From assembly GCA_051294375.1 (NCBI GenBank), contig CM119267.1:19005439-19069438 (forward strand): a stretch of 64,000 bases of DNA. The letters run 5' to 3'. The translations under genes were made by a program, and so were the position numbers. Below are positions 21,541-63,840 of this stretch, one piece after another (the first letter of the stretch is position 1; each line of letters starts with the position of its first letter). This stretch comes from Paraspadella gotoi (Eukaryota > Animalia > Chaetognatha). A model generated the notes under the pieces. It was not told the DNA's origin, searched no databases, and saw only the letters and a list, made by a program, of their open reading frames with translations.

Positions 21541-21789
21541 AAATGTTTCAAAAGGAATGTTTGCAATTGTATGAAAAGACCACTCCCAATCATATTTTAG
21601 AAGAAACCGTTACCTTCTACTGAAAAAGTTTTCGTCAAGCGAAGAAAAGTGGTTTCAATCGTCCANNNNNNNNNNNNNNNNNNNNNNNNNTTAAAGAAAC
21701 CGTTACCTTTCCTACTGAGAAAGTTCGTGCGAAGAAAATGTTTTAAATCGTCAAAGACGTGAAGAGGTCTTTTTCAAAAGAGACCTTTT

Positions 21790-26485: not shown

Positions 26486-26537
26486 TTTTTTCTTTTTTTT
26501 TCTTTTCTCTCATTTTCGTTTTCTCTTCTCCTTTCAG

Positions 26538-36858: not shown

Positions 36859-39800
36859 AGGAGAGAGAGAGAGAGAGAGGAGAAGAAGAGAGAGAAGAGA
36901 GGAACGAGAGAGAGAGTAGAGAAGAGAAAATGAGGAAAAAAGACTACCCCACCACACCACTCCAGCAACAACAGAACCCAACCATCTACACAAAACCGGA
37001 GAGAAATTAGAGAGAAAAGAAGAACGATCGTCAACAAAACCCTTTTTAGTTTGTCGCCGCTCGAGTACTGCGCATCAATTTTATCACTTTTGGTCGGTCT
37101 GTCGAATCGATCCGTCGTCGGTCGGTATGTCTGTCCATCGTTCTGTCCCACTTACGATTAAAAATGACCTATAATTAAGTATGCGTTGCACGATTGCTCA
37201 CTGTGACGTCAGTAATGTTAGCGTCAGGTCTGTAAATGTCCATGTCACGTCCATGAGAAACTACTCGTGATAGACAGTCACTGGCGCGCGCAACACAATT
37301 GAAACTTTACCGTTCGTTTTTTTTTTCTTTTTTTTCTTTTCTCTTCATTTTCGTTTACCTCATTCTCCTTTCGAGGTTCCGGAACTCCTGGCCCTTTTCT
37401 CCCTCTCGCGGCGCCCACAGGACCCGGACCATCGCGCCCCGGTCCCGCGATGGCCCCAAATCCAGCACCCCATCCCCATCAACCGCTGACGAACTCTCCA
37501 TCAATCTTTCCTCTTAGCCACAACAACCCATATCCATCAAATCCTCCTCCCTCGCCATCCCCTCAGCTCCTCACATTTTCTCCCTACTCATACCACATCT
37601 GGCAACCCCTCACTCTCTTCATAACTCCATACCCACTGGGACCGCCGGTCACCCCTTGGCTCACTCCAGCTGGGCAACCTCATGGGCCTCCACGTACCTG
37701 TACTCCAAAATCCCATCGTAACCCGATGCAGAATTTGTCGGAGGCGGTCTGTCGACGCCGCTTCTCGCCGGCGTCCTCAGTCATCCTCACCACTCCTTCC
37801 TTGACGAACCCCGATCAATCACCCCTCAACGCCAACAACCCCGTTCCTCCACCACAACCCGGAGCTCCAACTCACCGGCCACAATCCCCTCGGCCACAAT
37901 CCACCCCTCCATTTGCCCCATCCCCATCAAACCCCAGCCTCCACGGGCGGCGCCGCCTTCGTCCACGGTCCATCGCCCGTGGCATTCGACGCAGCCGACG
38001 ATCGTGGAATCAAATGGGTTGTCAGCCGCGCCGCTCCCGCAACAACAGCCGTTGTCCAGCACCAACAGGCAGCTTTCGCAGCAACATTCTTCCGCCGCTT
38101 CAACCGGCAAACATCAACATCATCATCCGTCGCTTACGCCGCTACATCAGCAGCATCAACCGAACAACAACCTCCTCCGCCTCAGGAAGGCCGCGCGTCG
38201 ACTCGAGCGGCGACGGGGGCGTCAGCAGCGGCGGCGGGGTTGCCACCGGATCAGAAACTGGTGGTGCCGCCGGAACTCCGCGAGTTGACGAACCATTGGC
38301 GTCGACGATGACGCGTGGATCTCCTGGCGGCCGACGCGTGAAGCATCTCTTCGACGAGTACGACCCGACGGATTCGGGAAATCTCCGCGCGAGAACTTTG
38401 CTCTCATTCTTGAGGGAATCCAAGTTCCGGGAGGAAGTGGATCCGCACAAGTTGTGAGGTGGTCAGGGGGCAATGGGGGCAATGTGTCGGGTGAGCAGGA
38501 GGGGCAATGGGTGGCAATGGGTCGGTGGATCAGGAGAAAAAGGGTTGATGGGTTGAATGAACGAATGAACATTTGGGAACCCAAATTATTCCAAAACTTG
38601 TTTCCACAACTTTTTGATTTTTTTTAGATTCGTTGCGTTTAAAATACAAAACGAAAATGACATAAAAATAAAAGAAACTAAAACAAAATTGCGCTATTGT
38701 CAAGTAAAACTGCATTTTCGTTTTTCGACTCCATAACTTTCTGAAAAGATCCTGGGGGTTTCTCATTTCAATGAGAACATTGTTTGAGCAGTGCTTAATC
38801 TCGACTTAATATTATTATTTTACTCAATTTTTTTTTCATTTCACAATTCATGATATAAACCTTGTCATGTCTAGTAATACATTTCACCCCAATACTTTCC
38901 GCCTCAATTTTAATCTCCATCTCATTCAACTTACCCTTTACTCTACCATCATCATTGTTATATTTTTGTTTTCTCTTTCCTTCATCGTTTCCTTACCTCT
39001 TCGTCCCCCCACCTTCTCACCAGGTGCTGGAGGCCCGAGCGACGGACGGCTCCCGACGATCACCTACCAAGAGTTCGTCAACATCACTGTCCAACAAACG
39101 TCGCACTCCTTCAAGATCGCCGTCCAGAACCGCGAACCAGAAAACTGTGGAGTGAGCACGAGTTTCGCCTCCGACGGAGCCGTCGTCGTGCCTCCACGCC
39201 GTCGCCTAAGCGGATCGCCAAGGATACCTCACCGACGAGCACGATCGAAAGATTACGCGGACAATACACTTGCGTTCCGCCGCCCGTCTTCATGTTGGTC
39301 CGTGGCATGCCTGGAATCGGCTTCTTCGCCTATCACGCAGCGCAGGCTCGTGGGTCACGCCCACCGCCCGTTGCCCAAAGACTCTCTCTTTCGTCTACGA
39401 TCCTCGAAAGCGCTGCAGATCTGCGCTTCGTCTTTACCACCCTCGTCCACGGCGGACTGGGTCCACATGGTCTTCAACTGGGCGTCCAGCTTCTCGTCGC
39501 GTCCCGCTGGAGATGGTGCACGGGTCTTTGCGCGCTTGGGCCCGTCTTCCTGGCCGGAGTGTTGGCCGGCTCGCTCAGGACTTCCTGCTTCGATCCGGGG
39601 GCTTACCTCGTCGGAGCCTCGGGCGGAGTCTACGCTGCTTAGCGGCGCACCTCGCCAACGTCTCCTCAACTTTGCCGAGCAGCAGTTTGTCGGTGGCGCG
39701 GTTGGCGTTCGTCTTCGTCCTCGCGTCGGCCGACGTCGGCTTCGCCATTTGGATCGGATACTCGGAGAGACGGACTTCCGCCCGTGGCCTTCGTCGGGCA

Positions 39801-41095
39801 TTGACGGCGCACGTGGCCGGACTACCATCGGACTCGTCGTCCTTAAGAACTTCGAGCAGCGCTGACAAGCAGCCCGTCTGGTGGGTGGCGCTGGCGTCTA
39901 CTTGGCGTTAGTCGTCGCCGCGTCTGTTGGAAGTCTTCTACGTCAAGATTGATAGCCGGGCCGAAGGGGGGTGGGTGGTGGAGGGTCGGGGTGTATTGGA
40001 TTTGGATTATTGGCATTTAGAGTCTCTAGTGATTTGTTGTGTTTGTTGTTTTTTTGTTTGTTTTTTTTTTTTTAATTTTTTCACGAGTTCTGAAGCGCGG
40101 GAAATCGTTAGTTATTTTATTTATTCGACATGTCATTTTGGACATAGGCTTTATGATTATCAATTTTTTCTAATTTTCTAGTATAAACAACGATTTTTTT
40201 TATTTTTAGAATCTATTAAATCTTGTTTTTAACGTCTTAATTCCCATTCTTTCCTCCGGTTCCACTCATTAACGCCATCTTTGGTTTCGATGGGAAAATT
40301 AAAAGGAAAATGGAGTAAATTAAAGTTTTTTTTCTAACATTTTTTACAGCTAAAAAAACCAAAATTTGATGGAAAAGAGATGTAAAAAATTCTCAACTAT
40401 CTTCGTTCGAAGATATTTTTGTTTTTATGAAAGATTTGGTTTTAAAAGGATTCCTTCCCGTTTTCTTAACATCATTTTTTTTTCACCTGCGTTTCTTTAG
40501 TCTCCCTCGCCGAAATCCCAAAACGCTTTCAGAATCCGTTTTCCATTCGCCAAATCTTTTTTTGTCTTGGAAGAGAAAAAAAAATAGTTCCTCGCGGATT
40601 ACTTTTTTTTAAACGCTCGTACAAATCCGTTCGCGCGCGTAAAATTAGAAAGAAAAAAAAACCTCGCTAGTCATCGTCGTTGTTCGAAGGCGTCGCGCGT
40701 CGTCGTCGTCGTCGTCTCCGTCGTCGTCGTTCGTTGTCGTCGTCGTCGACGTCGACTCTTTTTATCGCCCGTGACTTTTTAAATTAGAAGAATGAAAACA
40801 AGTGTTTTTTTCTTAGGGAGAGTGGAGAACGGCCTAGAAAGCTAGTTTACAGTTTTTAGTTTTTTAACATTTTGGAAAAAAAAACATTTAAAACTCGCGT
40901 CGCCGAGGGTGCGACGGCGCGCCGAAATTCGACGCCTGCTTCTTTGGAGAGGCGCCCCGGCGGCGGTTTTTTCCTGTTTTTTACTTCCGCCAGGGAATAG
41001 TTAGGAAGGAAAGAGAAGGGAAAAAAGGGGAGAAAAAAACTGTTCAAAATTCATGGACAAGGGACGGAAGAGGAGGAGAGAGAGTAGAGACGAGA

Positions 41096-45040: not shown

Positions 45041-47399
45041 TAATGTCCTTTAAACTCCAAGTATTTGACCATCATTCTTTGTATAAAGTGACCCAACGTT
45101 TGAAGCAGACCCACACGAAAAAAAGGACAAAATGACCCGAAGATCGAAATCGATAAATACGATCGTTTTATATAATAAACTTAAAAATGACCCGCATGAC
45201 AATGAAACAGATGAACTAGATCGAAAAATGAAACCTAAAATACGTGTAAAGTTAGTGAGTTAGTGTAACGNNNNNNNNNNNNNNNNNNNNNNNNNNNNNN
45301 NNNNNNNNNNNNNNNNNNNNNNNNNNNNNNNNNNNNNNNNNNNNNNNNNNNNNNNNNNNNNNNNNNNNNNNNNNNNNNNNNNNNNNNNNNNNNNNNNNNN
45401 NNNNNNNNNNNNNNNNNNNNNNNNNNNNNNNNNNNNNNNNNNNNNNNNNNNNNNNNNNNNNNNNNNNNNNNNNNNNNNNNNNNNNNNNNNNNNNNNNNNN
45501 NNNNNNNNNNNNNNNNNNNNNNNNNNNNNNNNNNNNNNNNNNNNNNNNNNNNNNNNNNNNNNNNNNNNNNNTTTTAGACGTGGGGTTCGTCGTTGTTATT
45601 ATTGATAAAACGATTATTTCTTACTTATCGAGGAAAGTTTAAGATGTATTAAATGAGATTAAACAGTTAGATATCTTTTTTTTTCAGTAATTTCTTTGTT
45701 TTTCTCAGTGGCGAGCGTAGTTCACCATGGCAACGAACCTCTAAAGCCCCAAACAAGCTAACTCCTTCGCCTCTTCTCTCTAATCCGATTTCTCTTCCTT
45801 CGCGTTATTTCATTCCGAGATTTTTTTTCTCTTTTTTACCCAGAGGATCAACGACAGAGACAGAGACAAAAATAACGACAACGACGACAACGACTGGAAA
45901 AGGCAAAATGGAGACCCTTCTCTTTGCCCTTGACAGGCATCTGCCTNNNNNNNNNNNNNNNNNNNNNNNNNNNNNNNNNNNNNNNNNNNNNNNNNNNNNN
46001 NNNNNNNNNNNNNNNNNNNNNNNNNNNNNNNNNNNNNNNNNNNNNNNNNNNNNNNNNNNNNNNNNNNNNNNNNNNNNNNNNNNNNNNNNNNNNNNNNNNN
46101 NNNNNNNNNNTCTCTCTCTCTCTCTCTCTGACTTTTCTTCTTTGGAATCCAGTGAAAGTTGAGGTCAAGTTCTGATCGACTGCGACCTCTGGAGTTTCTG
46201 TTTCCGAGAGGCCACGAGTTCCGAATTGGGGGGGGCGATGGAAAGAGAGAGAGAGAGAGGTTTTATATGGGTCCTGCGACTTGAGGGAGGGTTAATGATT
46301 CTGAAGGGGTCAGGCTAAGAAAAAGTGACCATCGATAACATTAGGGAGAGAGAGAGCGAGAGGGTCAATTATACGGGTTTCGCTCGGGTCGCTGAATGTT
46401 CAATTCGGGAAGGATTTATATCTTCTTTTTTTTTCGTTTTCTTTGTTGACTTTTATTAAGTTTCTTCAGGGATTTGAAATATATGTCGTTTAATTTTTGT
46501 AGGGCTGTGCATCGTTCGAATCGAAGTTCCGATCAAGANNNNNNNNNNNNNNNNNNNNNNNNNNNNNNNNNNNNNNNNNNNNNNNNNNNNNNNNNNNNNN
46601 NNNNNNNNNNNNNNNNNNNNNNNNNNNNNNNNNNNNNNNNNNNNNNNNNNNNNNNNNNNNNNNNNNNNNNNNNNNNNNNNNNNNNNNNNNNNNNNNNNNN
46701 NNNNNNNNNNNNNNNNNNNNNNNNNNNNNNNNNNNNNNNNNNNNNNNNNNNNNNNNNNNNNNNNNNNNNNNNNNNNNNNNNNNNNNNNNNNNNNNNNNNN
46801 NNNNNNNNNNNNNNNNNNNNNNNNNNNNNNNNNNNNNATAGCGATAACAGCGAAATGAGTAATACAAGCTCGTATAATTAACAAGGCGTTACATATATTT
46901 ATCAAAGGAAAGGTTTCTATTACATTTATCACATCTATCACCAATATGTCGCTTATTTTAGATCTCTTTTGACCTTCGAAAACTTCCATTTTAAGAAAAT
47001 AGAAAAAACAGAGGACATTATAATATATTTTATAAACAAAACAAAAAAAGTAAAATCTAAACTGAGGATTAAAATTCTCCGATGATAAAAGGTTTCTTTC
47101 AATCAAGGGAAAGACTATCAATGACATGAAATTTTTAACTTTTTTTTCATTGTGGTAATAAAAATCTTTTTTGAAATTAATTTAAAACCTCTTCTAACTT
47201 TTTTTTCTAAAAATTTATTTCTGTTTTGTCGAACAGCGTATGACCCGAGGAAGATCAATGAGACAATTAAAATGAAATTTTGGGATCCATAGCGTGTTCA
47301 AGATTATAAATTATAAATCATCAAGACTTAGGTAAGTGGACAATTTTAGGTTGCTCTTGTTCGCAGAAAGCTTTACGAAGTGGCTGATAATTATTATTT

Positions 47400-49122
47400 G
47401 GTTACAATAAATAAAAAATTGTAGAGATTTTTCGATCGTGTCGGTCTGACATCCCACCGCAAAAATGAGTTGAGGAATCCCGGCACGAACACGGATTCCC
47501 ATGAAGACACATTTTTGTCTAATTTCATGCTCGAGGAAAGAGAGAGAGAGAGAGAGAGAGAGAGNNNNNNNNNNNNNNNNNNNNNNNNNNNNNNNNNNNN
47601 NNNNNNNNNNNNNNNNNNNNNNNNNNNNNNNNNNNNNNNNNNNNNNNNNNNNNNNNNNNNNNNNNNNNNNNNNNNNNNNNNNNNNNNNNNNNNNNNNNNN
47701 NNNNNNNNNNNNNNNNNNNNNNNNNNNNNNNNNNNNNNNNNNNNNNNNNNNNNNNNNNNNNNNNNNNNNNNNNNNNNNNNNNNNNNNNNNNNNNNNNNNN
47801 NNNNNNNNNNNNNNNNNNNNNNNNNNNNNNNNATTCCAGAGTCAGTCCTCCTGCCAAGGATTCTCGATCCCGTGTCACGCGACAGAGAGGGAGAGAGAGA
47901 GAGACAGAGAAGAAAAGGAGGAAGACGAAGAGGAAAGGGAGACGCAAGAAGAAGAGGAAGAGGAGGATGCACGGGTGCCGACGGGTGGGCCCTCAACTTT
48001 GACCCATCCCACGGAATTCGACCCAAAAAAAAAAAGTCGACATCGAGGCTCAAAAGACGAAGAAGACTTTTTCGATCCTGAAAGAGATTTTATTTTTTAT
48101 AATCATTTCGATCCGGACGCCGAAAAAGTTAAAGATTTTTGTCCGGAAATGTGGATTTCAATTCGCCGGAAGATTCGCGTCGGGTTTCCTCAACGTAGTT
48201 CGGTAAATGGAATTCGTTTCTAAAAGGTGAGAAGGGGAACTTAATGCGAGGGANNNNNNNNNNNNNNNNNNNNNNNNNNNNNNNNNNNNNNNNNNNNNNN
48301 NNNNNNNNNNNNNNNNNNNNNNNNNNNNNNNNNNNNNNNNNNNNNNNNNNNNNNNNNNNNNNNNNNNNNNNNNNNNNNNNNNNNNNNNNNNNNNNNNNNN
48401 NNNNNNNNNNNNNNNNNNNNNNNNNNNNNNNNNNNNNNNNNNNNNNNNNNNNNNNNNNNNNNNNNNNNNNNNNNNNNNNNNNNNNNNNNNNNNNNNNNNN
48501 NNNNNNNNNNNNNNNNNNNNNNNNNNNNNNNNNNNNNNNNNNNNNNNNNNNNNNNNNNNNNNNNNNNNNNNNNNNNNNNNNNNNNNNNNNNNNNNNNNNN
48601 NNNNNNNNNNNNNNNNNNNNNNNNNNNNNNNNNNNNNNNNNNNNNNNNNNNNNNNNNNNNNNNNNNNNNNNNNNNNNNNNNNNNNNNNNNNNNNNNNNNN
48701 NNNNNNNNNNNNNNNNNNNNNNNNNNNNNNNNNNNNNNNNNNNNNNNNNNNNNNNNNNNNNNNNNNNNNNNNNNNNNNNNNNNNNNNNNNNNNNNNNNNN
48801 NNNNNNNNNNNNNNNNNNNNNNNNNNNNNNNNNNNNNNNNNNAAAGTATCGAGTGAGTGTTTTTTACATTTTTCTCCATCCATGTTTCTAACCCGCGGGT
48901 GTGGTGCATAATAAGTCGTGACATAAACAAATAAAACAAAACTTACTTTAACAAACAAAAAAAAAACAATAAACCTAAGTTAAACGCCTGAAGTGCATAA
49001 TAAGTCGTGATATAAACAAATAAAACAAAACTTACTTTAACAAACAAACCAAAAAAAACAATAAACCTAAGTTAAACGCCTAAAGTTTCTCCCTTTTCGA
49101 GTTTTCGCCCGATTTTTTAAGC
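47400..49122 (+). repeat. Gapped copy of ~55180-57803
   Basis: Shared anchors: aaataaaaaattgtagagatttt, attccagagtca, aacctaagttaaacgcc and gattttttaagc. Confidence 0.85.
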
Positions 49123-49148: not shown

Positions 49149-52140
49149 TGTTTGAATAAATGCCGCTGTTTCTCTGCCAGCAAAAAAATCATTCCTGCCA
49201 TTGAAAATCCCCTTTAATATTTTTAGTAAAATAGTCCTGCCAACAGAAATTAATCCTGCTGTAGAAAAAAATCGTGCTAATAAGATTTTCCTTGGAATTT
49301 TGTTTAAAAAATGTACTGTTTGCCTTGCCAGCAAAAAGTCATTTCCTGCATGAAAAATCCCCTTTAATATTTTTAGTAAAAATTGTCCTGCCAACAGGAA
49401 TTATTCCTTGCTGTGAGAACCAAAATCCTGCCAAAAAGATTTCCTAAGATTTTAGTTGAAAAATGACTGTTCCTCCGGCCAGCAAAAAATCATATCCCTG
49501 CCCATTGAAAATTCGCCCTTTAATATTTTAGTTTAAAATTAGAGTCCCTTACAACAGGAATATTCCTGCTCGTTGTGATTGAGAAAAAAATCCTGGCCAA
49601 AAAGATTTCCTAAGATGTTTTTGAAAAATGAGCACGTCCTGTTCCTGCCAGCACAACAATTTTCAGTTCCTCTCCTCTAATGTTGAAAATCCCCATTCAT
49701 TTTAATATTTTTAGTCGTGTTTAAAATAGTTCTAGCACCCAAAGGAATTATTTTCCGTGTCTGCTGTGATGAAAATAAAATTCTACCTGCCAAAAATAGA
49801 TTTTCCTAAAGATTTTTGTATTTTATTTTGAAAATATAGGCACCACTGTTCCTGGCAACGCAAAAATATTTCTTTCCTGCCATGAAAAATCACCCCCTTT
49901 AAATATAATTTAGTTATCTTAAAAATATCCTGCCAACAGGAATTATTCCTGGCTGTGTGAGAACAAATATCTGCCAAAAAGAGATTTTCCTAAGATTTGG
50001 AGAGTGGTTGAAATAGCATGACCTCTTGTATTTCCTTTTTAGCCAGCAAAAAATCATTCCTAGCCTTTGATTAAAAATCCCCTTTAATTATTTTTTAGTA
50101 AATAGTCTACAACAGGGAATTATTCGTAGCTGTGAGAAAAATAATTCTGTCCAAAAAGATTTCCTAAGATTTTGTTTGTAAAAATGACTGTTCCTGCCAG
50201 CAAAAAATCATTCCCTTGCCATAAAAATCCACCCTTAATATTTTTAGTAGCTAAAATACGCTCCTGCAACACGGAATATATTCCTGCTTGTGGACGTAAA
50301 AAAAATCCTGCCAAAAAAGATATCCTAAGATTTTGTTTGAAAATATGACTGTTCCTGCCAACAAAAAATCATTCCTGCCTTTATGAAAAATTCCCTTTAT
50401 ATTTTTAGTGTAAAATAGTTCCTTGCACCAGAAATTAATCCTGCTGTGATGAAAAATAATCCTGCTAATTAAAGATTTCCTTGGATTTTTGTATTTGAAA
50501 AAATGACTGTTCCTGCCAGCAAACAAGTCATTCTGCCCATGAAAATTTTCCCTTTAATATTGTTGTAAAATAGTCCTGCAAACAGGAATATATTCCTGCT
50601 GTGATGAAACAAAATCCTGCCAAAAAGATTCCTAAAGATATATGTTTGAAAAAATGGACTGTTCCTGCCAGCAAAAAATCATTTTTTCCTGCCTCATGAA
50701 AAAATTCCCTATTAATATTTTTAGTAAATAGTCCTGCCAACAGGAAATTATTCTGCTCTGTGAGAAAAAAATCCTGCCAAAAAGATTTTCCTAAGGTTTG
50801 TTTGAAAAATGACTGTTCCTGGCCAGCTAAAAATCAATTACCTGCTATGAAAAATCCCCTTTAATATTTAGTGTAAATAGTCCTGCTCAACAAGAAATAT
50901 ATTTCGGGTGCTGTGAGAAAAAATCCTGCCAAAATAGATTTTTTCCTCAGATTTTGTTTGAATAAATATGACTGTTTCCTTCGCCAACAATAAAAATCAT
51001 TCCTGCCAGAAAAATCCCCTTTAATATTTTTAGTAAAAATAGTCCTGCCAACAGAAATTAATTTCATGCTGTGAGAAAAAATCCTACTAATATAAGATTT
51101 CCTTGGATTTTTGTTTGGAAAAATGACTGTTCCTGCACAGCAAAAAGTCATTCCTGCCATGGAAAAATCTCCCTTTAAATATTTTTTTAGTTAAAATAGT
51201 CCTGCCAACAGGAATTATTCCTGCTGTTGGAGAATAAATAATTCCCTGCCAAGAAAATAGATTTCCTAAGATTTTGTTGAAAAATGACTGTTCCTGCCTC
51301 AGCAAATCATTCTTCTGCCATTGTACCATCCCCTTTAAATTTTTAGTTTAATAGTCCTGCCAACAGAAAATATTCCTGCTGTTTGGAGGAAAAAAATCCT
51401 TGCCAAAGATTTCCTAAGGATTTCTTGTGTGTGAAAAATGACTGTTTTGCCAAGCCAAAAAGATCATTCTCTTGCCATGAATAATCCCCTTATATTTTAG
51501 AAAAAGTCCGCAACAGAGAAATTAATCCTGCTGTGAGAATAAAACCGCTAAAGTATTTCATTGGATTTTGTTTGAAAATGACTGTTTCCTGCCAGCAAAA
51601 AATCATTCTCTGCATGAAAAATCCCCTTTAACTATGTTTAGTAAATAGGTCCTGCAACTGGAATTAATTAATCCTTTTTCTGTGTAGATAAAAAATCCAT
51701 GCTAATAAGATTTTCCTTGGAATTTTTTTTTGTAAAAATGACGTGTTTCCTGCCAGCAAAAAAGTTATTCCTGCATTGAAAAAATTCCCCTTTAATATTT
51801 TTAGTAAAATAGTCCTTGCCAACTTGAAAATTAAATCCTGCTTGTAAGAAAAGAAATCCTGACTAATAAGACTTCCAATTCTTTTTTTGTTTTCAATCCT
51901 TGCCAAGAGTCTCAATCCTGCTGTAAAAATAGTCCCTTGTTAGTACCAATCAAAAAAAAAGACGGTTCCTGCCATTTTATATATTCAATCCTGCTTAGTG
52001 GTGAATAATATATTCCCCGTGAATTTACCAATCAGAGTGATCCTGCCAGTTCCTGCTATTCATTTTTTCCGAGAAATTCGTAGGTTTTTTTTTTTACTCC
52101 TAATCCTTGCCCAATTCTTGACCCATAATATTTCCTGCCA
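49149..52140. repeat. Satellite array, unit ~147-150 bp, about 19 copies
   Basis: Recurrent unit aaaatgactgttcctgccagcaaaaaatcattcctgccatgaaaaatcccctttaatatttttagtaaaatagtcctgccaacaggaattattcctgctgtgagaaaaaaatcctgccaaaaagatttcctaagattttgtttg. The aaatcccc anchors at ~49205 and ~49355 are 150 bp apart. Confidence 0.92.
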
Positions 52141-54710
52141 CCTCGAGGCAGAAAACCCGAAAGACCTTAACCTTTTCAAAAACTGTTCTTGCCTGATTTA
52201 TTCGTCTTTTGGGCGAAAATCAGCGACGTCGAAGTTCGTAGAAGAGTTGCGGCATGAGGAAAAAGGCGAGCCAGTTTCCCTCGGCCAGAAAGGGGCTGCA
52301 TTTGACGGGAGGATTCTTATTGGCATCTGCGGATGAATAGCGAGATGGAAATCGATGGGGAATTTGGATGAGACGTGTGGAAGGTATTAGGAACGTGACC
52401 ATATTGTTTTAATTATTTAAATTACAAAATCAGCATTTTTTCGTGTAACGTCCGAACAGCGATTGATATGCCGCAAGTTTATAATAAAGTCTGACTTGTG
52501 TCTCACCGGCACATGATAGAGAGGAAAAAAAAAAGCGTTATCTGAGTCAAGTCCCCGTGGAAGTCGCCTCAATTACCTTTAAAAATGAGCATTTAAACTA
52601 ACCTTTTAAAACGTACATTTTATAAATCTTATTTTCTCCCATTACAATCGAGGCTCTTTTGTTCGTAAACTGGAGTCTTATCTCGCGTCCCCACCTACAT
52701 CCGACTGGCGTATTGGCACTTCCTTCTTCGCAATTGGCGCTCCTCGGGTAATCTTTACGCTGAACGACGACGACGACGCGTCCGATGATTCACGGCTTCC
52801 CTCCATCTTGGTCGACATGTCTCCTCCTCATCTGCTCCTTGTTGTCGATTCCAAACGTCGTTAGTTATTAGCACTGTGAACGAAAGAACAGTCGACATAT
52901 GTTGTTTGACAGAAGAACAGTTGGTCATTCGACGAAAAGATTAAGATAAAAAAAAACAAAGTTAAAAAAAGTTGATAAAAAAACATACAAACATAATGGT
53001 TAAAAATCGTGACATTTTTGATCAAGTTTTAAAAACGATCGCTCGGAGACTAATGCGAGTCAGAAAGGCTTCCCGTGAATTTTTAATAAATATAGAAATA
53101 AAAATAAAACTCGTTATAACTGCACACTCACTCCTCTCCTCTCTCCGAGACTAGATGAAATTCGAAGTCTGCGCCCCGCCGGACCGAAAATCGGCTTGGT
53201 GCCGAGTTAGCATCCGGGGCCCCTTAGTTCCGGCTACCGTCGAGAAAAACCACCGACTCTTCCCTGTCGATCGAGGGAGGAAAACATCGCGGTCGTAGAT
53301 TGATAGAACAGAGAAGGCGACTCTGATGTTAAGAGAGACCACGGTTGTGTCTGCTTTTTTTGACTTTTTTATTATAAGATTTAAAGATTAAAAGTTTCTG
53401 TTTTTTTTTTGTGTGTTTCTGCTGTTTTTTGCGCTGATAAAAGACTTGATTATATGTTCATGTATTATTTTCTTAAGTTGTGTGTTTGTTTGTTGTTTGT
53501 AATAACAAAAACTTTTCCTTCGTTTAAGTTATTTATAATGTTACTTTCTTCGTATCTGTTATGTTAATATTATTTTTTTAATGTGTGATATATTTTTACC
53601 TTTCAAAATTAAACTAATTATATGATGAACCAAAACTATTGACTCCATTCACAAAACGCTCTCGTTTTCGGTTCCATAGTCAATTGACACGTGTAATGAG
53701 TGAAATACGTTCATTATTTAGGTTTCAATGACATACAAATAATATTTAAAACAAAATCCCGTCCCCTATATTTTTGTCTATATTGCGCAACCCCTTTGTC
53801 CAGCCCGCCTTGGACCCCCCGCTTCCAGACTATTCCTCGCACATAACGAATTCCACTTTTCATTCTGATTTCCAAGTAATCATTCTTATCTTCCTTCTTT
53901 TCTTATCTGTATGGAGGACTAACAAAGAAAAAGTTGACTTTTGTTGGCCTCAAATCAGAAAAAAGAAGGCTCTGTTGTATGGTCCGCTTTAAGAGAGAGT
54001 CGGGGTCCGGCCGCCAGGGATGAATAATAGATAACGGAAAATCGACGCTTGATCCTGCACGCGGCAACCGGATGTACTGAGGTTAAACGTTCATTTAAAG
54101 AGGTACTTATTGCGCAATATACGGCCGCTTATGGAATGGTTTATCGAGTGCATGAGGCGGCTTTTCATAAAAAGAAGGAAATTGCCCGAAGATTTACGAT
54201 AGAGAGTCGTTTGTCGTTTTTATAATTTCTTCATTCAAAACAATATGACTTACCTTACTCAAAAGTTAAGTGAATTACTTCGGCGACTTTGGAACGAACA
54301 TTCCGGCTTCCACGAAGTAAGCTGATCATCATACTCTGGCCGTTGGATCTGAGATCCCAGCATTAGTGAAAATTCAGGAAAAGCTTTTCTCTGGGTCTCT
54401 ACGAATGACCTGCGAAATCGGTTTAACGTAGTCTCTTTTTAATACTATCATTTTTTCTATTATTTTAAATCAACATATTCTTTAACGTAGTCGGATTTAC
54501 ACTTATCAGGCTTAGGGTTTCCAAACGCAATCTCGGCAATACACAAAACACAATACCCGCGCGCGTCCTAGAAAAATAAATAACAAAAAAAAAACTTGGG
54601 TAAGAAAAAAAAGAAGAAAAAAATCCAGGGCAAAGTTAACCTACGAAATTTTTATCAACTTTTTTTTTTTTGTTCTCGTGACGCTCACCTCGGCGCTTCC
54701 GCTCCATTTT
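52140..54710 (-). pseudogene. Inverted, error-rich copy of the 5' part of the TIR gene (~57985-60330)
   Basis: Reverse complements of the TIR exons lie at ~54250-54365, ~52690-52880 and ~52165-52330 (translates ..EGNWLAF..), with the introns also copied. Confidence 0.8.
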
Positions 54711-57700
54711 CCTTGCGCGCGCTTCCTCTTCTTTTCTCCATATCTTTCCCTCCTCTCTCTTCGTCTCTTGCTCGTCAATACTGATTGGCTCGCCTTTTGG
54801 TGTATGGGTCCGCTCGGCTCCCTGGCTCGGATCGACCATTTTGCACCAATATTTAGTGACCGAAAAAGCAGTGGACAAAACGGTGAAATAATAATAGTTA
54901 ATCTAACGCAGATCTTTATTTTTGATATACAGAAATTTTGTATCAAAGGGAAGTTTACCTTTTGTGTAAAATTTAGAGACAGAAAAAAAAATATAAAAGA
55001 AATGAGAGTCCCAGTAAAAAAAAAGAGAAATTAAGAAATAGTGGTAGAGAGAACATAGGAGATTTTCGCAAAAATTAAAAAAGAAACCCAAAAAAAGCCG
55101 TTTTTTTTTCCTTTTGCGCCCTAAAATGGCGTCGCCGGCGGAAAATACAAAGGCGGATGAATCGGCACCGGAAATGAATTTGGTTACAAAATAAATAAAA
55201 AATTGTAGAGATTTTTCGATTCGTGTTCGGTCTGACATTCCCCACCGCCAACAAAATGAGTTTGAGGACTCTCAAACTAAGGCTCCGTGTAAGTCTGACT
55301 GAAATCTAGGTAAGTAAGACGGGGTGAAATGGTTGGGAAAGGAAAATATAATGCTAAGCGGCCTAAATCGCGCGGTAAAAAAAATTGGTCAACAGAGACG
55401 ATACAGGAGAGGCCCGGACGGTAGCGAGAAAGAGGAGGAAAAAGCGTGAATGAAAAAACCTAAACCCGCTGGACCTCGAGCCTGGGATCTCGGGAGGCAG
55501 GCGGGAGCCGCAGAGGCTATGAGAGAAATGATGAGGGACAAACGCGTTCGCATGATGGCGAAACCCTATTTCGGTTCTTTTCTGCGAGGAATCCCGCGCA
55601 CGGAACACGGATTCCCATGGAACACACATTTCTGTCTAATTTCATGCGCGAGCGAAAGAGAGAGAGAGAGACCGACGAGATTGAGCCAGAGAGAGACAGA
55701 GCGAGACTGAAGAGAAGAGAGAGTGACGAAGAGACGACTGACCCTGAGCAGAGAGAGAGAGAGAGAGGAGAAAGTAAAATAAGTAAGGAAAAACAGGAAA
55801 GAGAAGGAAGTGATACTGTAGTTCTGATTGCCTTTAAGACATGACTCTTAAACGTACTTTTTTAACCACACGATTCTCAACATTGACCTAAAACACATCA
55901 TCTATAAAATAATGCAATCCGCTTTTATTTTGCCGCTGCTACCGACCTCCATTCCAGAGTCACGTCCTTCATCCTGCCAATGGATGTCTCCGGATCCGGG
56001 TCACCGCAGACACAGAGGCGACGAGACGATAGAGAGACAGAGGACGTGGAAAACTATCAAGAAGGAAGACGAAGAGGAAAGGGAGACGGCAAGAAGAAGC
56101 AGCGGCAGAGGCAGGAGCATGCACGCACTGCGTGCCGCACGGTGGCGCCCTCAACTTTGACCCACATCCCACGAAATCCGACCCAAATAATAAGAACAGT
56201 CGACCATCGAGGCCCTCAAAAGACGAGAGAAGCACTTTTTACGATCCTGAAAGAGATTTTATTTTTCTATAATTCATTTCGATCCGGACGCCCGAGGAAA
56301 GTTAAAGCATTTTTGTCCGGAAATGTGGAAATTTTAAATTCTCCTGGAAGATCTCCCGCGTCGGTGTTTCCTCAACCGGCTCCAGTCGCGTAAATGGGAG
56401 ATTCGTCTAAAAGGTTGAGCAAGGGGAACTTAATGTCGAGGTGCATTTTTTAGTTAAGAGTTGTCTGAGATTGCATTATTTATGTTTATGTCAATAAAAA
56501 TAGTTGGTCGTTGTCCGGTCTCGTCGATTGTTGCTCGCATCCTCGTTAGAAGTTTACAATGCAGAAAAACCAAGCGAAAATAAGAGAAACAAATTGATAA
56601 TTATTGTTGCGAGACGCTTAATACACAAACGAACGACGACGAAACGACAAGACTAGGAAAGAGAGAAAGGATAAAGAGGACGACGCATGTCTATGTAAAA
56701 ATGTAACGATTAATTGGCATCATAAATGAAAATGAAACTCAAAATAATCGATTAAAAAGAGAGCATACAATAGATATGTCAAATACCCTAAACATTAAAC
56801 ATTCCCCGAACAGTAAAACGCCGGAGAAAAGAAGGTCGACAGCGAAAACGACATCCGAGCGCTCCGTTGACGACAACAACGACGAGAAAAACGCACGACG
56901 ACGACGTCGGACGACAAACAAACGACGACGAATTCCTCAAAGCAATCGATACTGACCCGAAACTTAAGCGCCAAATCGAGTGCCGAGTTATACGAAATGA
57001 AAAGAGCGGACAAGAAAATGGTGCTGAGAGAAAGAAAAGCCAATAGAGTACGAGGAGCAATACCTTTGATAATAACATAGATATTAGAAATAATAAAAAC
57101 ACTTGAAGGACATAAGAATCATTAAGGACATAAATATAGAAATAATAAAAACCTTGAAGACATAAGGTACAAGATATACAATATACTCACGTATACATAC
57201 GGTAAAACAGAGAGTTAAAATAAAATGAATTAAATCTTATACAGAGATTAAACTATAAAATTATATAATAGAACGTTTTAAGTTTTCATGGATGTTAGAA
57301 AACTAAAGAACTATAAATGACGGTGGTCGTCAAGTTCAAATATTGTTATAAACATTCCTAATTAGTGGCCTACTAGGAGGTAAAAATGTGAACACAAGTT
57401 TATACAAAAAAAAATGACGTAAATGTAAATACAACGTTAAACTGTCGTTCCGTCATCTCGATCTTTGCCCCGCAGAATCCGTTTTCCTACTACTAAAATT
57501 TGAAACAAGCTTTTTTTTCCCTTTCGGATATGTTTTTCCCATTCGCGTGACTCTATCTCTGATTTAGGCTCTTGATCGAGTAAAAGTATCGAGCTGAGTT
57601 GTTTTTACCATTTTTCTTCATTCCATCGAGTTGCAACAAGTGTCGTTTCTAACCCGGCGGTTGGTGCGCATAATAAGTCCTGAATATAAACAAATAAAAC

Positions 57701-57914
57701 CAAAAACTGACTTTAACAAACCAAAAAAAAAAAAACAATAAAACCTAAGTTAAACGCCCTGAAGTTTCTCCCTTTTCGCAGTTTTCGCCACGATTTTTTA
57801 AGCCGAAAATCTCCAGCCACCATTTTCTTTTTTTTTTTCCTGGACCCATGTTAATTTTCTGCAAAAATAAAAAAGAAACCCAAAAAAAGCCGTTTTTTTT
57901 CTCTTGCGCCTAAA

Positions 57915-57998
57915 ATGGCGTCGCCGCCGCGAAAATACAAAGCGGATGAAATCGGCACCGCGAAATGAAAAAAGAAGCCGCATGAATGCGGAGCCGAG
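57915..57998 (+). other. Probable first exon of the TIR gene (coding status unclear)
   Basis: YY1-like AAAATGGCG containing an ATG at 57915 and donor GAG|GTGAGC at 57999. This copy has an in-frame stop, but the duplicate at ~55126 reads MASPAENTKADESAPEM open. Confidence 0.4.
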
Positions 57999-58289
57999 GT
58001 GAGCGTCACGAGAACAAACAAAAAAAAAAAGTTGATAAAAAATTCGGTTAACTTTGCCTGTNNNNNNNNNNNNNNNNNNNNNNNNNCCTGGATTTTTTTC
58101 TTCTTTTTTTTACCCAAGTTTTTTTTGTTATTTATTTTTCTAGACGCGCGCGGGTATGTGTTTGTTGTTTGCAAGGTTTCGCGTTTAGTAAAATCCAACT
58201 AAAAACCTAAAATATGTTGTATTTTAAAATATAAAAATAGAAAAAATAGTATTAAAAAGAGACTCGTTAACCGATTCGCGTCATTTCAG

Positions 58290-58400
58290 GACCCAACATC
58301 TAATGCAGGATCCAGATCCAACGGCCGAGTGATGATCAGCTACTCGTGGAAGCCGGAATGTTCGTCCAAAGTCGCCGAAGTAATTCACTTACTTTTGAAG
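58290..58400 (+). CDS. TIR/fascin-like gene exon: TIR box 1
   Basis: Acceptor tcatttcag|, reads DPTSNAGSRSNGRVMISYSWKPECSSKVAEVIHLLLK, donor AAG|GTAAGT (phase 0). VMISYSW is the TIR beta-A motif. Confidence 0.82.
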
Positions 58401-59662
58401 GTAAGTCATATTGTTTTGGAAGAAGTAAATAAAAACGACAAACGCTCTCCTCGTAAAATCTTCGGGCAATTTCCCTTCTTTTTATGAAAGCCCCTCAGCA
58501 CCATAACCAATTCCATAAGCGCCGTATATTGCGCAATAAGACCTCTTTAAATGAACGTTTAATTCCACTACATCCGGTTGCCGCGCGGACAAGCGTCGAT
58601 TTCCGTATCATATTCAATCCCTGGCGCCGACCCCGCTCTCTCTTAAGCGGGACCCATAAAAACAGAGCCTCTTTTTCTGATTTGAGGCCAACAAAAGTCA
58701 GACTTTTTCTTTTTCGTCCATCAGATAAGAAAGAAGGAAGAAAGAATGATTCTTGGAGGAAAAGTGGAATTCGTTATGGCCGAGGAAAGTCTGGAAAGCG
58801 TGGGGCCAAGGCGGGGCTGGGACAAAGGGTCGAATATAGACAAAATAAGGGGGACGGTATTTTGTTTTTAAATAATTATTTGTATGTTCATTGAAACCTA
58901 AATAATGACATCGTATTTCCCATTAACACGTTCAATGACTATGGAACCGAAACGAGAGCGTTTGTGATGGAGTCAATAGTTTTGTTGTCATCATATAATT
59001 AGTTAATTTTGAAAAAGAAAAAAAAATATCAGAACATAAAAAAAATTATATTACAAACAGATACGAAAGAAAAGTAAACCTTTTTGTTTACAAACAACAA
59101 CAAACAACACAACGTTAAGAAAATAAACATGAACATAAACAAGTCTTTATCAGCGCAAAAAACACAGAAACACAACAAAAAAAAACAGAAACTTTTAATC
59201 TTTTAAATCTTTAAATAAAAAGTAAAAAAAGAGACACAACCGGGTCTCTTAACATCGTCGCCCTCATCTTTCATCAATTCGACCCGCATGTTTTCCTCCC
59301 TCGATCGAAGGGAAAGTCGGTTTTTCGACGGTAGCCGGAACTAGGGGCCCCGGATGTAACTAGCCCAGCCGATTTTCGGTCCGGCGGCGAGACTTCGTTT
59401 TCATCTGTCTCGGAGGAGGAGGAGGAGGAGGGCAGTTAATCGAGTTTTATTTTTATTTATAATTTTTAAGAATTTCAGGAGCTTTCTGACTCGATAGTCT
59501 CCGAGCGTCGTTTTAAAACTTGATCAAAATGTCACGTTTTTAACCATTATGTTTGTATTTTTTTTTATCAACTTTTCTTTAACTTTGTTTTTTTTATTTA
59601 ATCTTTCGTCGAATGACACTGTTCTTCTGTTCAAAACAATGTCCGACTGTTCTTTCGTTCAG

Positions 59663-59828
59663 GCTAATAACTACGACGTTTGGATCGACAAGGAGCAGAT
59701 GAGAGGAGACATGTCGGACAAGATGGAGGAAGCCGTGAGAACATCGGACGTCGTCGTCGTCGTCGTCAGCGAAAGATATCCCGAGAGCGCCAATTGCAAG
59801 AAGGAGTGCCAATACGCCAGTCAGATAG
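59663..59828 (+). CDS. TIR/fascin-like gene exon: TIR core
   Basis: Acceptor ttcgttcag|, reads ANNYDVWIDKEQMRGDMSDKMEEAVRTSDVVVVVVSERYPESANCKKECQYASQI, donor G|GTGGGG (phase 1). Typical TIR_2 pattern VWID...M..AV..S.VV..VS..Y..S.NC..E..YA. Confidence 0.88.
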
Positions 59829-60181
59829 GTGGGGACGCGAGATAAATCGTTTACGAAACAAAAGAGCCTCGATTGTAATGGGGAGAAATAAAAGATTATT
59901 TAAAATGTACGTTTTTAAAAGGTAGTTGAAATGCTCATTTTTTAAAGTAATTGAGGCGACTTACCACGGGCTTGACTCAGTAACGCTTTTTTTCCCTCTC
60001 TATCATAGTGCCGGTGAGACCAAATTCAAACTTTTATTTAACTTGCGGCATCAATCGCTGTCGACTTACACGAAAAAAATGTGATTTTGTTTTAATATTA
60101 AAAACAAATGGTCACGTTCCTAATACCTTCCACACGTCTCATCCAAATTCCCCATATTTCCATCTCGCCTTTCCATCCCAG

Positions 60182-60328
60182 ATGCCAATAAGATCCTCCC
60201 CGTCAAATGCAGCCCCTTCTGGCCCGAGGGAAACTGGCTCGCCTTCCTCCTTGCCGGAAAACTCTTCTACGACTTCGACGTCGCTGATTTCGCCCAAAAA
60301 GACGAAATCGGAAGAAAGTTTTTGAAAG
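60182..60328 (+). CDS. TIR/fascin-like gene exon: TIR C-terminal half
   Basis: Acceptor ccatcccag| (phase 1), reads (D)ANKILPVKCSPFWPEGNWLAFLLAGKLFYDFDVADFAQKDEIGRKFLK, donor G|GTAAGG (phase 1). It fits the ILPV...P.GWL..L..KLYYDF pattern. Confidence 0.88.
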
Positions 60329-60886
60329 GTAAGGTTTCGAGGTTTCGCCACTCTTTCGTGAGAAATTTCGATTGGTGTCTCTTGAAATTATTATTTTTAT
60401 GGTATTTAAGTTTTTTTTTTTTTTTTTTTTTTTTTTTGCATGTTGATCAAGATTTTCAGCCTCGTTTTTAAAACTTTGCGAATTTAAACTTCCCGCTCGA
60501 ACGACTAACCTAATGAGAAACCGATAATTTTTTTTTTGAGAAAATTCCGTCCATGCCTAGAAAAACCGTTAATCTCATTTACATATTGCGGCGAAAGCCT
60601 TCGAAGAGTTTGCGTTATTTTTTATGGTTGAGTCGGTCGGCGCTTTCATCCGCAAGAAATTTTTTTTTCTGGAAAAATCGTCAAGATAAAAAAAATAATT
60701 CCTAAAAATTTTTAGAATTAATTTTTACGAACTGTAAATTTATTAGATTCTTTCCTTGACGATAGTTTTCTGCATAAAAACTGAAATATTTTGTTTTCAA
60801 TTTGATCGTTCTCATTAAAATAGTTAAATTAAATTGAATTGTTGAATAAATAAATACACTATTTCAGTTTATTTATTTTCCCTCAG

Positions 60887-61771
60887 GCGTGGCCGAAATC
60901 ATCTCCAAAAAACAACAGACGAATTCCTTCGGCAAACCGTTCGCCGCCGTCGCGCCTCTTTTACAACCCACCACGCCCACCGCTCCAACGGCTCCCACCT
61001 CCGCTCCATCCGCTCCCCCTCTCTCCGACCCACAAAAGCCCACGGCCCGCTCCACCGCCGCTTCCCTCATGGACCTCGTCCCCTTCGCAATCGACCCAGT
61101 CGCCTACACATTCAAGGAATCCAACTTACCGGACGGCTGGTGGTTCTCGGCGCCGGAACCGTCGTCTCTCTCCATGACCTCGTCGCTCACGGTGGCGCTG
61201 CGTTCGACAACGTCGCGCGGCTGGTTCGTCGCGGAGCGTCGCAAGTTGTCCGCGGACCGCGATACGTCGGGACCGTGGGAAAAGTGGAAGCTGCAGATGA
61301 GAACCTCCGGCGGGGAGATTCTGACCGAGTCTGAGCGAATGGATGCCCTGAAGCTGCGGAAACAGCAGCTGGAAGCGGGGCATGTCAGCCAGCAGCTGTT
61401 TTCCCTGCAGTCGGCGCATGGCTCCTTCTTGGTGTGGGACGATCACGATCGACGCCCAAAGCTCGTGGAGACATCGCCGACGTCGCCCCTGCCGTCCAAC
61501 TGTCTCTTCGTCGTGAGACCGCGCCGTCCGCGGCGAAGGCGTTGGCGCTGAGGGACGATAGAGGTCGCTCTGCGCGTCCCCTCGTCGACGGTGACGCTGA
61601 AGACGGACTTGGCGGGACGCTGACGTTCGGGAAACTGACGGCGTGGTAGTGGTTTGTCGGCGGCGGCGAGTGGTTCTCCTCCGTGGCAGCACCCGGAATT
61701 CCATCTTGCAAAAGCCTAACGGCGGTGACTTTGCCGACGAGATTCAGGAATTCTTCCTCAAATCCTGGCAG
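60887..61771 (+). CDS. TIR/fascin-like gene exon: Pro/Thr/Ala linker plus fascin-like beta-trefoil repeats (frameshifted near 61520-61660)
   Basis: Acceptor ttccctcag| (phase 1). Motifs VALRSTTSRGWFVAERRKLSADRDTSGPWEKW and FSLQSAHGSFLV, then in shifted frames ALALRDDRGR and VVLLRGST...EFFLKSWQ up to donor CAG|GTGAAG. Confidence 0.72.
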
Positions 61772-61796
61772 GTGAAGAGAGAGAGAGAGGAGAGGG

Positions 61797-61831
<35 letters not shown>

Positions 61832-62479
61832 GAGAAGAGAGAGAGAGAGAGAGAGAGAAGGGTCACAATCCTGAATTCTTTATTTTTTTATCTTTTTAAT
61901 CTTTTTATTCGCCTTGCTTTCTTTTTTTTATTTTTACTTCTTTTTCTCTCCTTTTCTTTTTCTCTCTCTTTCAAATATCGTTTTAAAATCTCATTTTAAT
62001 TACAATTACAATTAGAGAGTCCGTAAAATTTTTCGCCTTTTCTCTCTGAGAATTTCGCTTTTTTCTTTTTTCTTCTTTTTTCCCTGTTTTTCTTAATATA
62101 CTTTGACACTTGACTTGAGAAAATAGACGACATGGATTTTCCATTAGTTGATAAAAATATCTTTACTCTTTACAAGCATTCTCTCAAATTATTTTCGAAA
62201 ATACCTTGCTACGTTATTTTTTTTTAATAATACCAAAAACAGTATTTACATAATCATACTGTTTATTTCAGTGCCGCTTGAAGTATAAATCGGTAAGAAA
62301 TGTCAACAGCATAATAGATTTTGTTTGTTAGATGCCACAAGTTAACTTTTTTCAGTTTGTTCAGGTTTCGATAATATAATGAATTTTATTAGGTCAGAAC
62401 TTCATAAGACGGTTAATCATCTTTTACAGCTAAAGATAAAACTAAAATAATTTAAATATACTTTATATATCGGTAAACA

Positions 62480-63010
62480 TTATTGAATAGGAAGCCAGGT
62501 ACTCTGGGAGTGAATACAAAGACTGTGAGAGAGTCTTGATTGAAAGCTTGCAGGGACCTGCTATTCATTATCTTGTAAGAGTGATGGAGCCTTAAACACC
62601 AAAGCCTGTCCAAAGTCAGGGGCAAGATAGCTTATTTATTAAATGAATGGATAATTTTATATATGGTTGTACCAATTTCATAAAAATTCAGCTCCTTTGC
62701 TATTCTTGATGCTAGTGCGAGCATACACATAAGTATTCCCGCGATCTAATACTTAAGGGAGTGGTCTTTTCATACAATTGAAACTATTCTTTGAAATAAT
62801 TTTTCCCACTTCATTGATAGGAAGCCAGGTACTCTGGAGTGAATAAACAAGACTGTGAGAGAGTTTGATTGAAAGCTCGCAGGGACCTGCTATGTCATTA
62901 TCTTGTAAGAGTGATGGAGGCCTTAAACCACCAAAGCCTGTCAAAGTCAGGGGCAGATAGCTTATTTATTAAATGAATGGATAAATTTTTTTTATTGGTT
63001 GTACAATTTC
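62480..63010 (+). repeat. Two tandem copies (~330-bp period) of a dispersed repeat also found at 21270-21540
   Basis: ataggaagccaggtactctgg occurs at 62487 and 62817; cttatttattaaatgaatggataa occurs at 62631 and 62961. Confidence 0.8.
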
Positions 63011-63465
63011 ATACAACACATACAACAAAATATATTTAGAAACCGGAGGCGACCTTTTTTTTATCTAATCGAGTTGGAATCTTTTTTAGCCAAAATATTT
63101 TATTTTCCGAATCGATTTCGATGGTCGGGACAAAATCCAAACAAAAACTTTGCCGAGTTTCGCCGCCGCGACGTGAAACAAAAAAGTTTATGTTCCGCGT
63201 GTAGTTCTTTAAGCGAATTCGTTTGTGATATAAAAAGAGTGAAGAGAGATTCAGAATTCATGAAAAAGAGTTAAAACAACTGATTGAATTATATAAACAT
63301 TCACTAAAAGCATCGATAGATTTATTTTTGTTAATATTCTACCGGTGTTTTGACTCCAAACTTTACAATTCACGGAATTGAAATATCTTTGGTATTTCAA
63401 ATAAATCTACAGCTGAATAGACAGAATAATTGTTACGAATAAGTGATAATACCTTTTAATATTAG

Positions 63466-63616
63466 CAGTCCCTGAGCTTCGGATCAGGCTGTAACACCGT
63501 GTAACAGGCGGGTTAAGCGCCAGTGCCTGTTAACTCTTATTCGGCCACCTTAGGGTTGGGAGGCGGATGAGTTGCCTCCTGAACCAATGGCCTCTGAAGT
63601 CCACCAGACAGCTTTT
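63466..63616. other. GC-rich intronic element with three predicted hairpins (candidate structured RNA or TE end)
   Basis: Stems read by eye: CCTGA/TCAGG around a cTTCGg loop, TAACAGGC/GCCTGTTA, and GGCCA..GGTT..GGAGGC/GCCTCC..AACC..TGGCC. Confidence 0.3.
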
Positions 63617-63667
63617 ATTAGGGGAACTCAATCGATCACATCCTTTCTTTTTCTCCCAAAATCACAG

Positions 63668-63840
63668 AAACACCCGGTGACTGTGAAGAGTCCTTTTCTC
63701 TTCGGACGATCCTACCTCGTCGCAGATTCTAACCAAGCGGAACCTCTCGTCCTATGCGCCTTTTTTACGGGATTTGAAAACGAAGCCATGTTGAGGACGA
63801 GGAAAGGAGCGATACTTATCTGCGATAAGGATAAAAACGG
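63668..63840 (+). CDS. Probable further exon of the TIR/fascin-like gene; the gene continues beyond the window
   Basis: Acceptor atcacag| (phase 0, matching the 61771 donor), reads KHPVTVKSPFLFGRSYLVAD...AMLRTRKGAILICDKDKN, donor GG|GTAAGT. The motifs resemble further fascin-type strands. Confidence 0.62.

Follow-up and report, generated by a model that had tools for sequence, protein, structure and literature searches.

According to PMC9153377, TIR domains joined to a sensor domain form a known class, and TIR action is described as requiring oligomerisation (PMC13142454). In Arabidopsis, the TIR-lectin proteins AtPP2-A5 and AtPP2-A8 are given a role in defence (PMC10329053). Uncharacterised TIR clades are reported to be common among non-model animals (PMC13142454), and for the majority of invertebrate TIR proteins that belong neither to the TLR/MyD88 nor to the SARM1 group, neither input nor output is known. 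Here, a gene is described from a 64,000-nucleotide stretch of the chaetognath Paraspadella gotoi (GenBank assembly GCA_051294375.1, contig CM119267.1, positions 19,005,439 to 19,069,438 of the forward strand; hereafter the window, with positions counted from its first letter). The gene is spliced and encodes an N-terminal TIR domain, a Pro/Thr-rich linker and repeats that appear to form beta-trefoils of the fascin clan. This architecture, first proposed in a sequence-only reading of the window, holds and is kept in a protein of a second organism (P0005).

Two groups of sugar-binding trefoils resemble its repeats. As described in PMC11039641, glucose is held in CBM92 by a stacking Trp, by a Glu at O3/O4 and by a nearby Arg at O2; binding is weakest in domains with one site and improves with more sites, the affinity for glucose is only millimolar, and free glucose is taken end-on. 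A termite is the only animal case of CBM92 named there. According to PMC3531485, Hydra PPOD uses the Trp of a WEXF motif, has an Arg six residues ahead of this Trp and binds sulfated glycans.

A full-text literature search, with most subscription papers and supplements outside its scope, returned no paper on a TIR-fascin or TIR-trefoil fusion, in line with the earlier remark that the architecture was unfamiliar. The words 'fascin' and 'trefoil' are absent from the accessible main texts of the TIR surveys PMC8662601, PMC13142454 and PMC11797021, as is 'fascin' from that of PMC6321704. Provisionally, this conserved domain combination has apparently not been described before.

Gene structure and transcript support

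Contigs of four of the nine public sequencing runs that hold the stretch (X9, X1, X2 and X5) were compared with the window. X9 is RNA-like only by the guess of the tool, comes from a single study and consists of contigs, not reads; no run is recorded as RNA. Contigs of X9 skip three GT..AG introns, at 58401-59662 (one contig), 59829-60181 (two) and 60329-60886 (one), and these joints occur in none of the three DNA runs. Joining 58290-58400, 59663-59828, 60182-60328 and 60887 onward gives a single open frame through the whole TIR domain and the motifs quoted for it beforehand. The 60328/60887 splice, which the sequence-only reading had named as a test of the gene, is found in a 920-nucleotide X9 contig that runs from the TIR end over the 558-nucleotide intron into the first three of six repeats (R1 to R6), ending at 61643. 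A 1302-nucleotide X9 contig (depth 47.2) places its letters 17-131 on 61658-61771 and its letters 129-304 on 63665-63840, and extends 998 nucleotides past the window. A splice 61771/63668 is drawn here because these abutting pieces, both from a contig of 1302 nucleotides and depth 47.2, are taken as the same contig. The gene is real: it has a spliced transcript with at least six exons in the window and about 1 kb beyond it. Of the five exons with GT/AG ends and matching phases proposed at first, the ends and the open frame stand, while the exon number was too low and the letters as written contain a stop and frameshifts.

Exons are GC-rich (0.48-0.63) and introns AT-rich (0.29-0.38), with GT..AG ends; all exons lie on the forward strand. 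The 3' end of the probable exon 1 is at 57969-57998, with a donor GT at 57999 and a joint listed by no contig comparison; an X9 contig has 260 letters 5' of 58288. Exon 2 (58290-58400, AG/GT ends, X9 joint to 59663) encodes the TIR start, with VMISYSW from 58329 and 55% identity to P0005. The TIR core, with the CxxE motif and its Glu codon at 59804-59806, lies in exon 3 (59663-59828, X9 joints on both sides; Pfam TIR_2 6.6e-12) and the TIR end in exon 4 (60182-60328, X9 joints 59828/60182 and 60328/60887). Exon 5 (60887-61771, covered by X9 contigs at 60885-61643 and 61658-61771) encodes the linker, a DLxxFAIDP motif and R1-R3, the predicted first trefoil; it is collinear with P0005 and its frame is open with the read letters, the assembly errors beginning at 61376. 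Exon 6 (63668-63840, no difference from the X9 contig) encodes the degenerate R4 and the start of R5, belonging to the predicted second trefoil. It is followed by a donor GT at 63841, the gene runs on outside the window, where some 80 more codons with the rest of R5 and an FRG1-like R6 would be expected, and the full protein is predicted to have about 600 residues. Intron 5 carries very high-copy interspersed repeats (62300-63520), with further copies near 21398-21587; thousands of DNA contigs stack on them, and they are present in the RNA-like run too.

The letters of the window include a stop at 61549-61551 and several frameshifts within 61376-61710. Between 60885 and 61643, in exon 5, the X9, X1 and X5 contigs show 11 gap letters and 5-6 substitutions relative to the window, and X2 contigs carry most of these differences where X2 covers. 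With X1 letters substituted, the frame is open to 61643; beyond this point the lengths fit the phase of the next exon, with one gap letter unlisted and a short Gly-rich stretch bridged by inference. The stop and the frameshifts are assembly errors, because the short-read contigs differ there and restore the open frame. The start had been set at the ATG at 57915, which runs into a stop after 17 codons. The sequence upstream of about 57969, this start included, is probably misjoined, because 57854-57969 is a duplicate of 55062-55178, the X1 contig aligns from 57969 only with 232 letters left over, and the gene agrees with an inverted copy of itself, described below, from 57967 only.

It is extremely improbable that the whole fusion results from faulty assembly or annotation, or represents a pseudogene. 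In favour of this are the many errors of the assembly (an in-frame stop, frameshifts and duplicated segments of raw reads), the lack of a contig covering the gene from end to end, and RNA evidence that comes from one run guessed to be RNA. Nevertheless, this explanation is largely refuted by the 920-nucleotide contig that links the TIR end to R1-R3 across an intron, by the short-read contigs that remove the stop, and by P0005, which has these parts in unchanged order in a single frame.

Conservation in a second organism

A search of 1.84 billion representative proteins with 61054-61374 (E<=0.001) yielded 30 matches. Twenty-four of them carry Fascin, FRG1, DUF7910 or DUF569 and align through the VALRS..GWFVAE-type repeat, while the six without trefoil families were set aside as repeat-driven or unexplained. 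P0005 is a protein of 542 residues, a single-member cluster on a contig of 1872 nucleotides, with an N-terminal TIR_2, the same order of parts and one reading frame. Aligned end to end with the window model, it is identical in 164 of 489 columns (34%, E 8e-65), with 61 of 117 in the TIR (52%), 19 of 40 in R1 (48%) and 26-32% identity in R2-R5. Similarity to P0005 exceeds that of all 1000 shuffles both for everything downstream of R1 and for the last exon by itself. Since P0005 is collinear over the whole model, the fusion is conserved in a second organism.

No third member was found in searches that are weak for distant eukaryotic proteins. Word-index searches, each a weak negative, gave none of 1977 candidates with the 60889-61374 piece (longer proteins only) and P0005 itself only with its residues 185-542 (1 of 1981) and 1-270 (1 of 1181), both among proteins of 298-949 residues. 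None of 28 pattern matches in metagenome contigs was confirmed; two loci with a degenerate TIR motif were both chance matches inside a bacterial aminotransferase-like open reading frame. In P0009, P0012 and P0021, metagenome proteins among them, WExF-type trefoils are joined to other partners (a DM9 repeat, a VWC domain and a lipase), which shows the trefoil module to be shuffled between many partners.

TIR domain

The 59642-59827 piece alone matches Pfam TIR_2 (PF13676) at 6.6e-12 (46.4 bits against a cut-off of 28), and P0005 matches it N-terminally with 65.6 bits over 118 of 122 positions. Both proteins contain CKKE, the Glu of which aligns with that of WCVRE in RPS4, a residue with an established catalytic role. 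By alignment, the TIR keeps a Glu at the catalytic position of enzymatic TIRs. It scores better with TIR_2 than with Pfam TIR. According to PMC13142454, TIR_2 is a broad Pfam model and no clade; therefore, the resemblance to a 'TIR_2 class' noted in the sequence-only reading says no more than that a typical TLR/MyD88 TIR is not at hand. The nearest ESM Atlas cluster is a 229-residue eukaryotic TIR_2 family, commonest in chordates (0.96). The anti-phage profiles ThcB4, bSEFIR and ThsB match the TIR part only, and the NCBIfam ones are far under their cut-offs.

In full-length P0005, Pfam finds no LRR or Ig ectodomain and no death domain, which differs from the TLR/IL-1R/MyD88 layout. It also finds no ARM or SAM domains, and the TIR is N-terminal, which differs from the ARM-SAM-SAM-TIR order of SARM1. 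By a crude check, no hydrophobic 19-residue window exceeds 1.17 in the window model (exons from 2 onward) or 1.41 in P0005, which agrees with the earlier remark that no membrane segment is evident, and the protein is predicted to be cytosolic.

The TIR may act as a non-enzymatic adaptor that scaffolds other TIR proteins, or outside immunity, for instance in a neuronal or developmental role as with SARM1 and Raw, with structural or protein-binding trefoils and a vestigial sugar motif. Invertebrate ecTIR-DC proteins have been hypothesised to be adaptors or regulators (PMC6321704), NAD (nicotinamide adenine dinucleotide) cleavage is described as not universal among Glu-bearing TIRs (PMC9153377, PMC13142454), and Trp-Glu is absent from five of the six repeats. 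However, R1 is conserved nearly at the level of the TIR and keeps all three types of sugar-contact residue, which a vestigial site would not need. We place this explanation on the unlikely side.

Trefoil repeats and linker

A profile was built from 41 repeats of 18 search matches. R1 (61189-61296) scores 27.8 bits with it in the window model (best of 500 shuffles, 3.6) and 35.3 bits in P0005, and the last repeat of P0005, outside the span of the window, scores 9.2 bits (at most 3.9 across 1000 shuffles). R1 is the only canonical repeat in the window model, the others being degenerate. The fascin-like repeats reported initially are thus present as one canonical repeat and the plural was overstated; Pfam finds no Fascin in any window piece and no family at all on the trefoil pieces. 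In P0005, Fascin (PF06268) and FRG1 (PF06229) reach 22.7 against a cut-off of 23.1 and 23.2 against 27, respectively. With HHalign, R1 and the start of R2 match (97.6%, 53 columns) and the last strand of R5 is also reached, whereas R2-R3 alone (8%) or R4-R5 alone give nothing.

In the ESM Atlas, residues 275-500 of P0005, a span that excludes both clear repeats, retrieve clusters of Fascin, FRG1 and DUF7910 at 0.92-0.94. These matches include animal fascin and FRG1 clusters and also unannotated bacterial glycoside-hydrolase fragments; they share 125-154 features, against 170 typical of the same family in a calibration that excludes protein parts. Language-model features thus point to fascin-clan beta-trefoils. 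A single-sequence AlphaFold model has a predicted local distance difference test score (pLDDT) of 38. With a 15-row six-repeat alignment it reaches 47 overall, and confidence (about 70-84) is confined to R1, a portion of R2, the last R5 strand and R6. A wide fold search with the alignment-based model gives nearly only trefoils (best Z 8.6), a result that is partly circular because the model was built from a trefoil alignment. The protein likely contains two trefoils, and a tandem and a nested arrangement both fit this model. Sequence searches of the PDB with the trefoil region gave angiopoietin matches only, at E of at least 0.66, or none. As the trefoils of this gene are missed by Pfam, automatic annotation would read it as TIR-only, and other 'TIR-only' invertebrate proteins may conceal comparable sensor domains.

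R1 has an Arg (61258-61260) six residues before Trp-Glu (61276-61281), reading WEKW in the window protein and WEKF in P0005. Within the clan, its sequence matches the WExF type of CBM92 and PPOD better than that of the actin-binding fascin and hisactophilin. A trefoil pair sitting on F-actin in the manner of fascin, FRG1 or hisactophilin, with a TIR that fires when actin is disturbed by a pathogen or when filaments template its assembly, is to be weighed here. The predicted cytosolic location, the top 24 Foldseek matches shown at E<=0.001 (all fascin entries), the FRG1/Fascin-like last repeat of P0005 and the animal fascin and FRG1 clusters among the Atlas matches would suit it. However, fascin has four trefoils and two are predicted here, the fold matches come from a model shaped by the supplied alignment, and identity to fascin in fold alignments is 10-19%. 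Moreover, the nearest sequence matches are of the WExF type and, among nine looked up, the two with a named organism are bacterial. An actin-linked guard is therefore unlikely, and of the ligand or actin binding suggested earlier the glycan half is favoured by the WExF-type R1, the actin half less so.

The Pro/Thr linker has about 40 residues of low complexity, poorly conserved in the middle. It is indeed PTAP-rich, with three P[ST]AP motifs (reached by 6 of 20000 shuffles) within a tandem micro-repeat. A link to ESCRT, of which we take P[ST]AP to be a motif, was dropped, as these motifs are absent from P0005 and sit in the micro-repeat. Between linker and R1, DLxxFAIDP is conserved. This motif, the single conserved site, which suits a small ligand, and the end-on binding of free glucose by CBM92 sites (PMC11039641) would fit a gate in which the trefoils, folded back on the TIR, keep it off until R1 binds a metabolite of the host (free sugar, sugar phosphate or ribosyl nucleotide). 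Such a small-molecule gate is very doubtful, since a poorly conserved, low-complexity linker separates the two parts and the affinity of CBM92 for glucose is given as only millimolar (PMC11039641).

Proposed function

The reading we prefer, with a rough probability of 0.35, is that of a receptor in the cytosol, with polymeric glycan clustering the TIRs into an NAD-cleaving assembly. Conservation is highest in the TIR and R1, and two features are kept selectively in both proteins, the TIR Glu and the Arg, Trp and Glu of R1. Control of the TIR by the trefoil module, put forward in the sequence-only reading, is a candidate mechanism. Past the presence of the residues, we infer each step. A polymeric glycan would bind the putative sugar site of R1 on many copies of the protein. 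The candidate ligand is a glucosyl end, such as that of beta-1,6-glucan from a fungus-like invader inside the cell, or else glycans that broken endomembranes expose. Self-association of the TIRs could give avidity and offset a single weak R1 site; the weakest binding by one-site CBM92 domains would fit this need for clustering. The clustered TIRs might then switch on a predicted NADase or nucleotide-signal output, with a presumed role in immunity. A narrower form, in which a CBM92-type trefoil, possibly derived from bacteria, reads intracellular beta-glucan of microbes and templates the NAD-cleaving assembly, is quite unlikely.

Several points weigh against the glycan receptor. Glucans are rare in the cytosol. 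The Trp-Glu motif is found in one of six repeats only, the Asn of PPOD is not kept, and R3-R5 have no sequence-profile support and a pLDDT below 50. For a model made from a trefoil alignment, fold comparison does not separate CBM92-B (Z 9.1) from fascin (Z 9.0). The last repeat of P0005 is matched instead by FRG1 (6.6e-5) and Fascin (1.1e-4), each below its Pfam cut-off. Exon 1 is not fixed, so a signal peptide there is possible, although P0005 begins five residues before its TIR match. All conservation arguments rest on two sequences. As for the output, the amoeba TirD is described as cleaving no NAD in spite of its Glu and as acting independently of it (PMC13142454), and SARM1 has been termed the sole known NAD-consuming animal TIR (PMC13455253).

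A candidate input, the conserved Arg/Trp/Glu site, and a candidate output, the conserved Glu, are thus placed within one predicted soluble chain, and both are therefore open to point changes and standard assays. If the lectin-gated enzyme were true, one receptor would couple glycan sensing in the cytosol directly to an enzymatic output, and it would add a second animal TIR NADase route of immunity besides SARM1, convergent with the plant TIR-lectins.

Duplicated and repeated segments of the window

Exons 2-4 are present a second time, with their introns, in inverted orientation at 52151-54694 on the reverse strand (81.5% identity, thin contig cover). In exons 2-4, the two copies differ by 33 gap events and only 10 mismatches. 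A paralogue was rejected on account of these insertion-dominated differences, and the copy is probably an uncorrected long-read assembly artefact; the true first exon may lie where it continues, at about 54689-54950. Direct partial duplicates (55062-57803 and 47396-49122, 78-92% identity) adjoin it.

A rhomboid gene (26441-29129, forward strand; Pfam Rhomboid 2e-31, EF-hand E 0.008), with a long His/Pro/Asn-rich repetitive stretch before the EF-hand, has a second copy at 37303-39911 that differs almost only in single-base gaps. An exon of this neighbouring gene differs from its duplicate by 46 gap events and 6 mismatches, and the duplicate is likewise read as probably an uncorrected long read. 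Together with the introns and the type of TIR, this EF-hand rhomboid points to an invertebrate animal as host. The window further has 23 N gaps, nine of them exactly 25 bases long, which together with the partial duplicates indicates a gap-filled and error-rich assembly. An AT-rich unit of 155 bp is repeated in tandem about 16 times at 49176-51816, with 69% matches.

Comparison with known systems

Fascin, FRG1 and hisactophilin share the trefoil clan with this protein, and the last repeat of P0005 is weakly FRG1/Fascin-like; unlike them, the protein stays below Pfam cut-offs, shows 10-19% identity in fold alignments and has two predicted trefoils. With the invertebrate TIR_2/ecTIR-DC proteins it shares a non-TLR TIR, although those have no trefoil partner in the published descriptions available. 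It resembles SARM1/TIR-1 as a predicted-cytosolic animal TIR protein with Glu at the catalytic position, the sequence match being weak (E 0.08). It differs from them in having no ARM/SAM and an N-terminal TIR, and is non-orthologous.

The Arg and the WExF repeat in a predicted beta-trefoil are shared with CBM92 (Chitinophaga pinensis CpCBM92A/B, PDB 7ZOH and 7ZOI), and CBM92-B is the tied best fold match of the first repeats (Z 9.1, root-mean-square deviation 2.1, 72 aligned). Identity to 7ZOH/7ZOI in fold alignments is 16-19%, the criteria for CBM92 membership being a trefoil of 125-150 residues with three recognisable subdomains and at least 37% identity. CBM92 differs in being mostly bacterial, in sitting on secreted glycoside hydrolases and in usually having three sites, while here one site in six repeats is joined to a TIR. 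Hydra PPOD is likewise an animal protein with two tandem fascin-annotated trefoils, WEXF repeats and an Arg six residues before the Trp. However, it is secreted, has six intact sites and no TIR, and carries an Asn that is absent from the window protein.

Finally, AtPP2-A5 and AtPP2-A8 of Arabidopsis combine an N-terminal TIR with a lectin and are described as having no signal peptide or membrane segment (PMC10329053), as predicted here. Their lectin is Nictaba/PP2 and not a trefoil, their TIR belongs to the plant clade, and the homology shown is limited to the TIR fold. By analogy of arrangement, these plant TIR-lectins appear to be the best functional counterpart of the Paraspadella protein.

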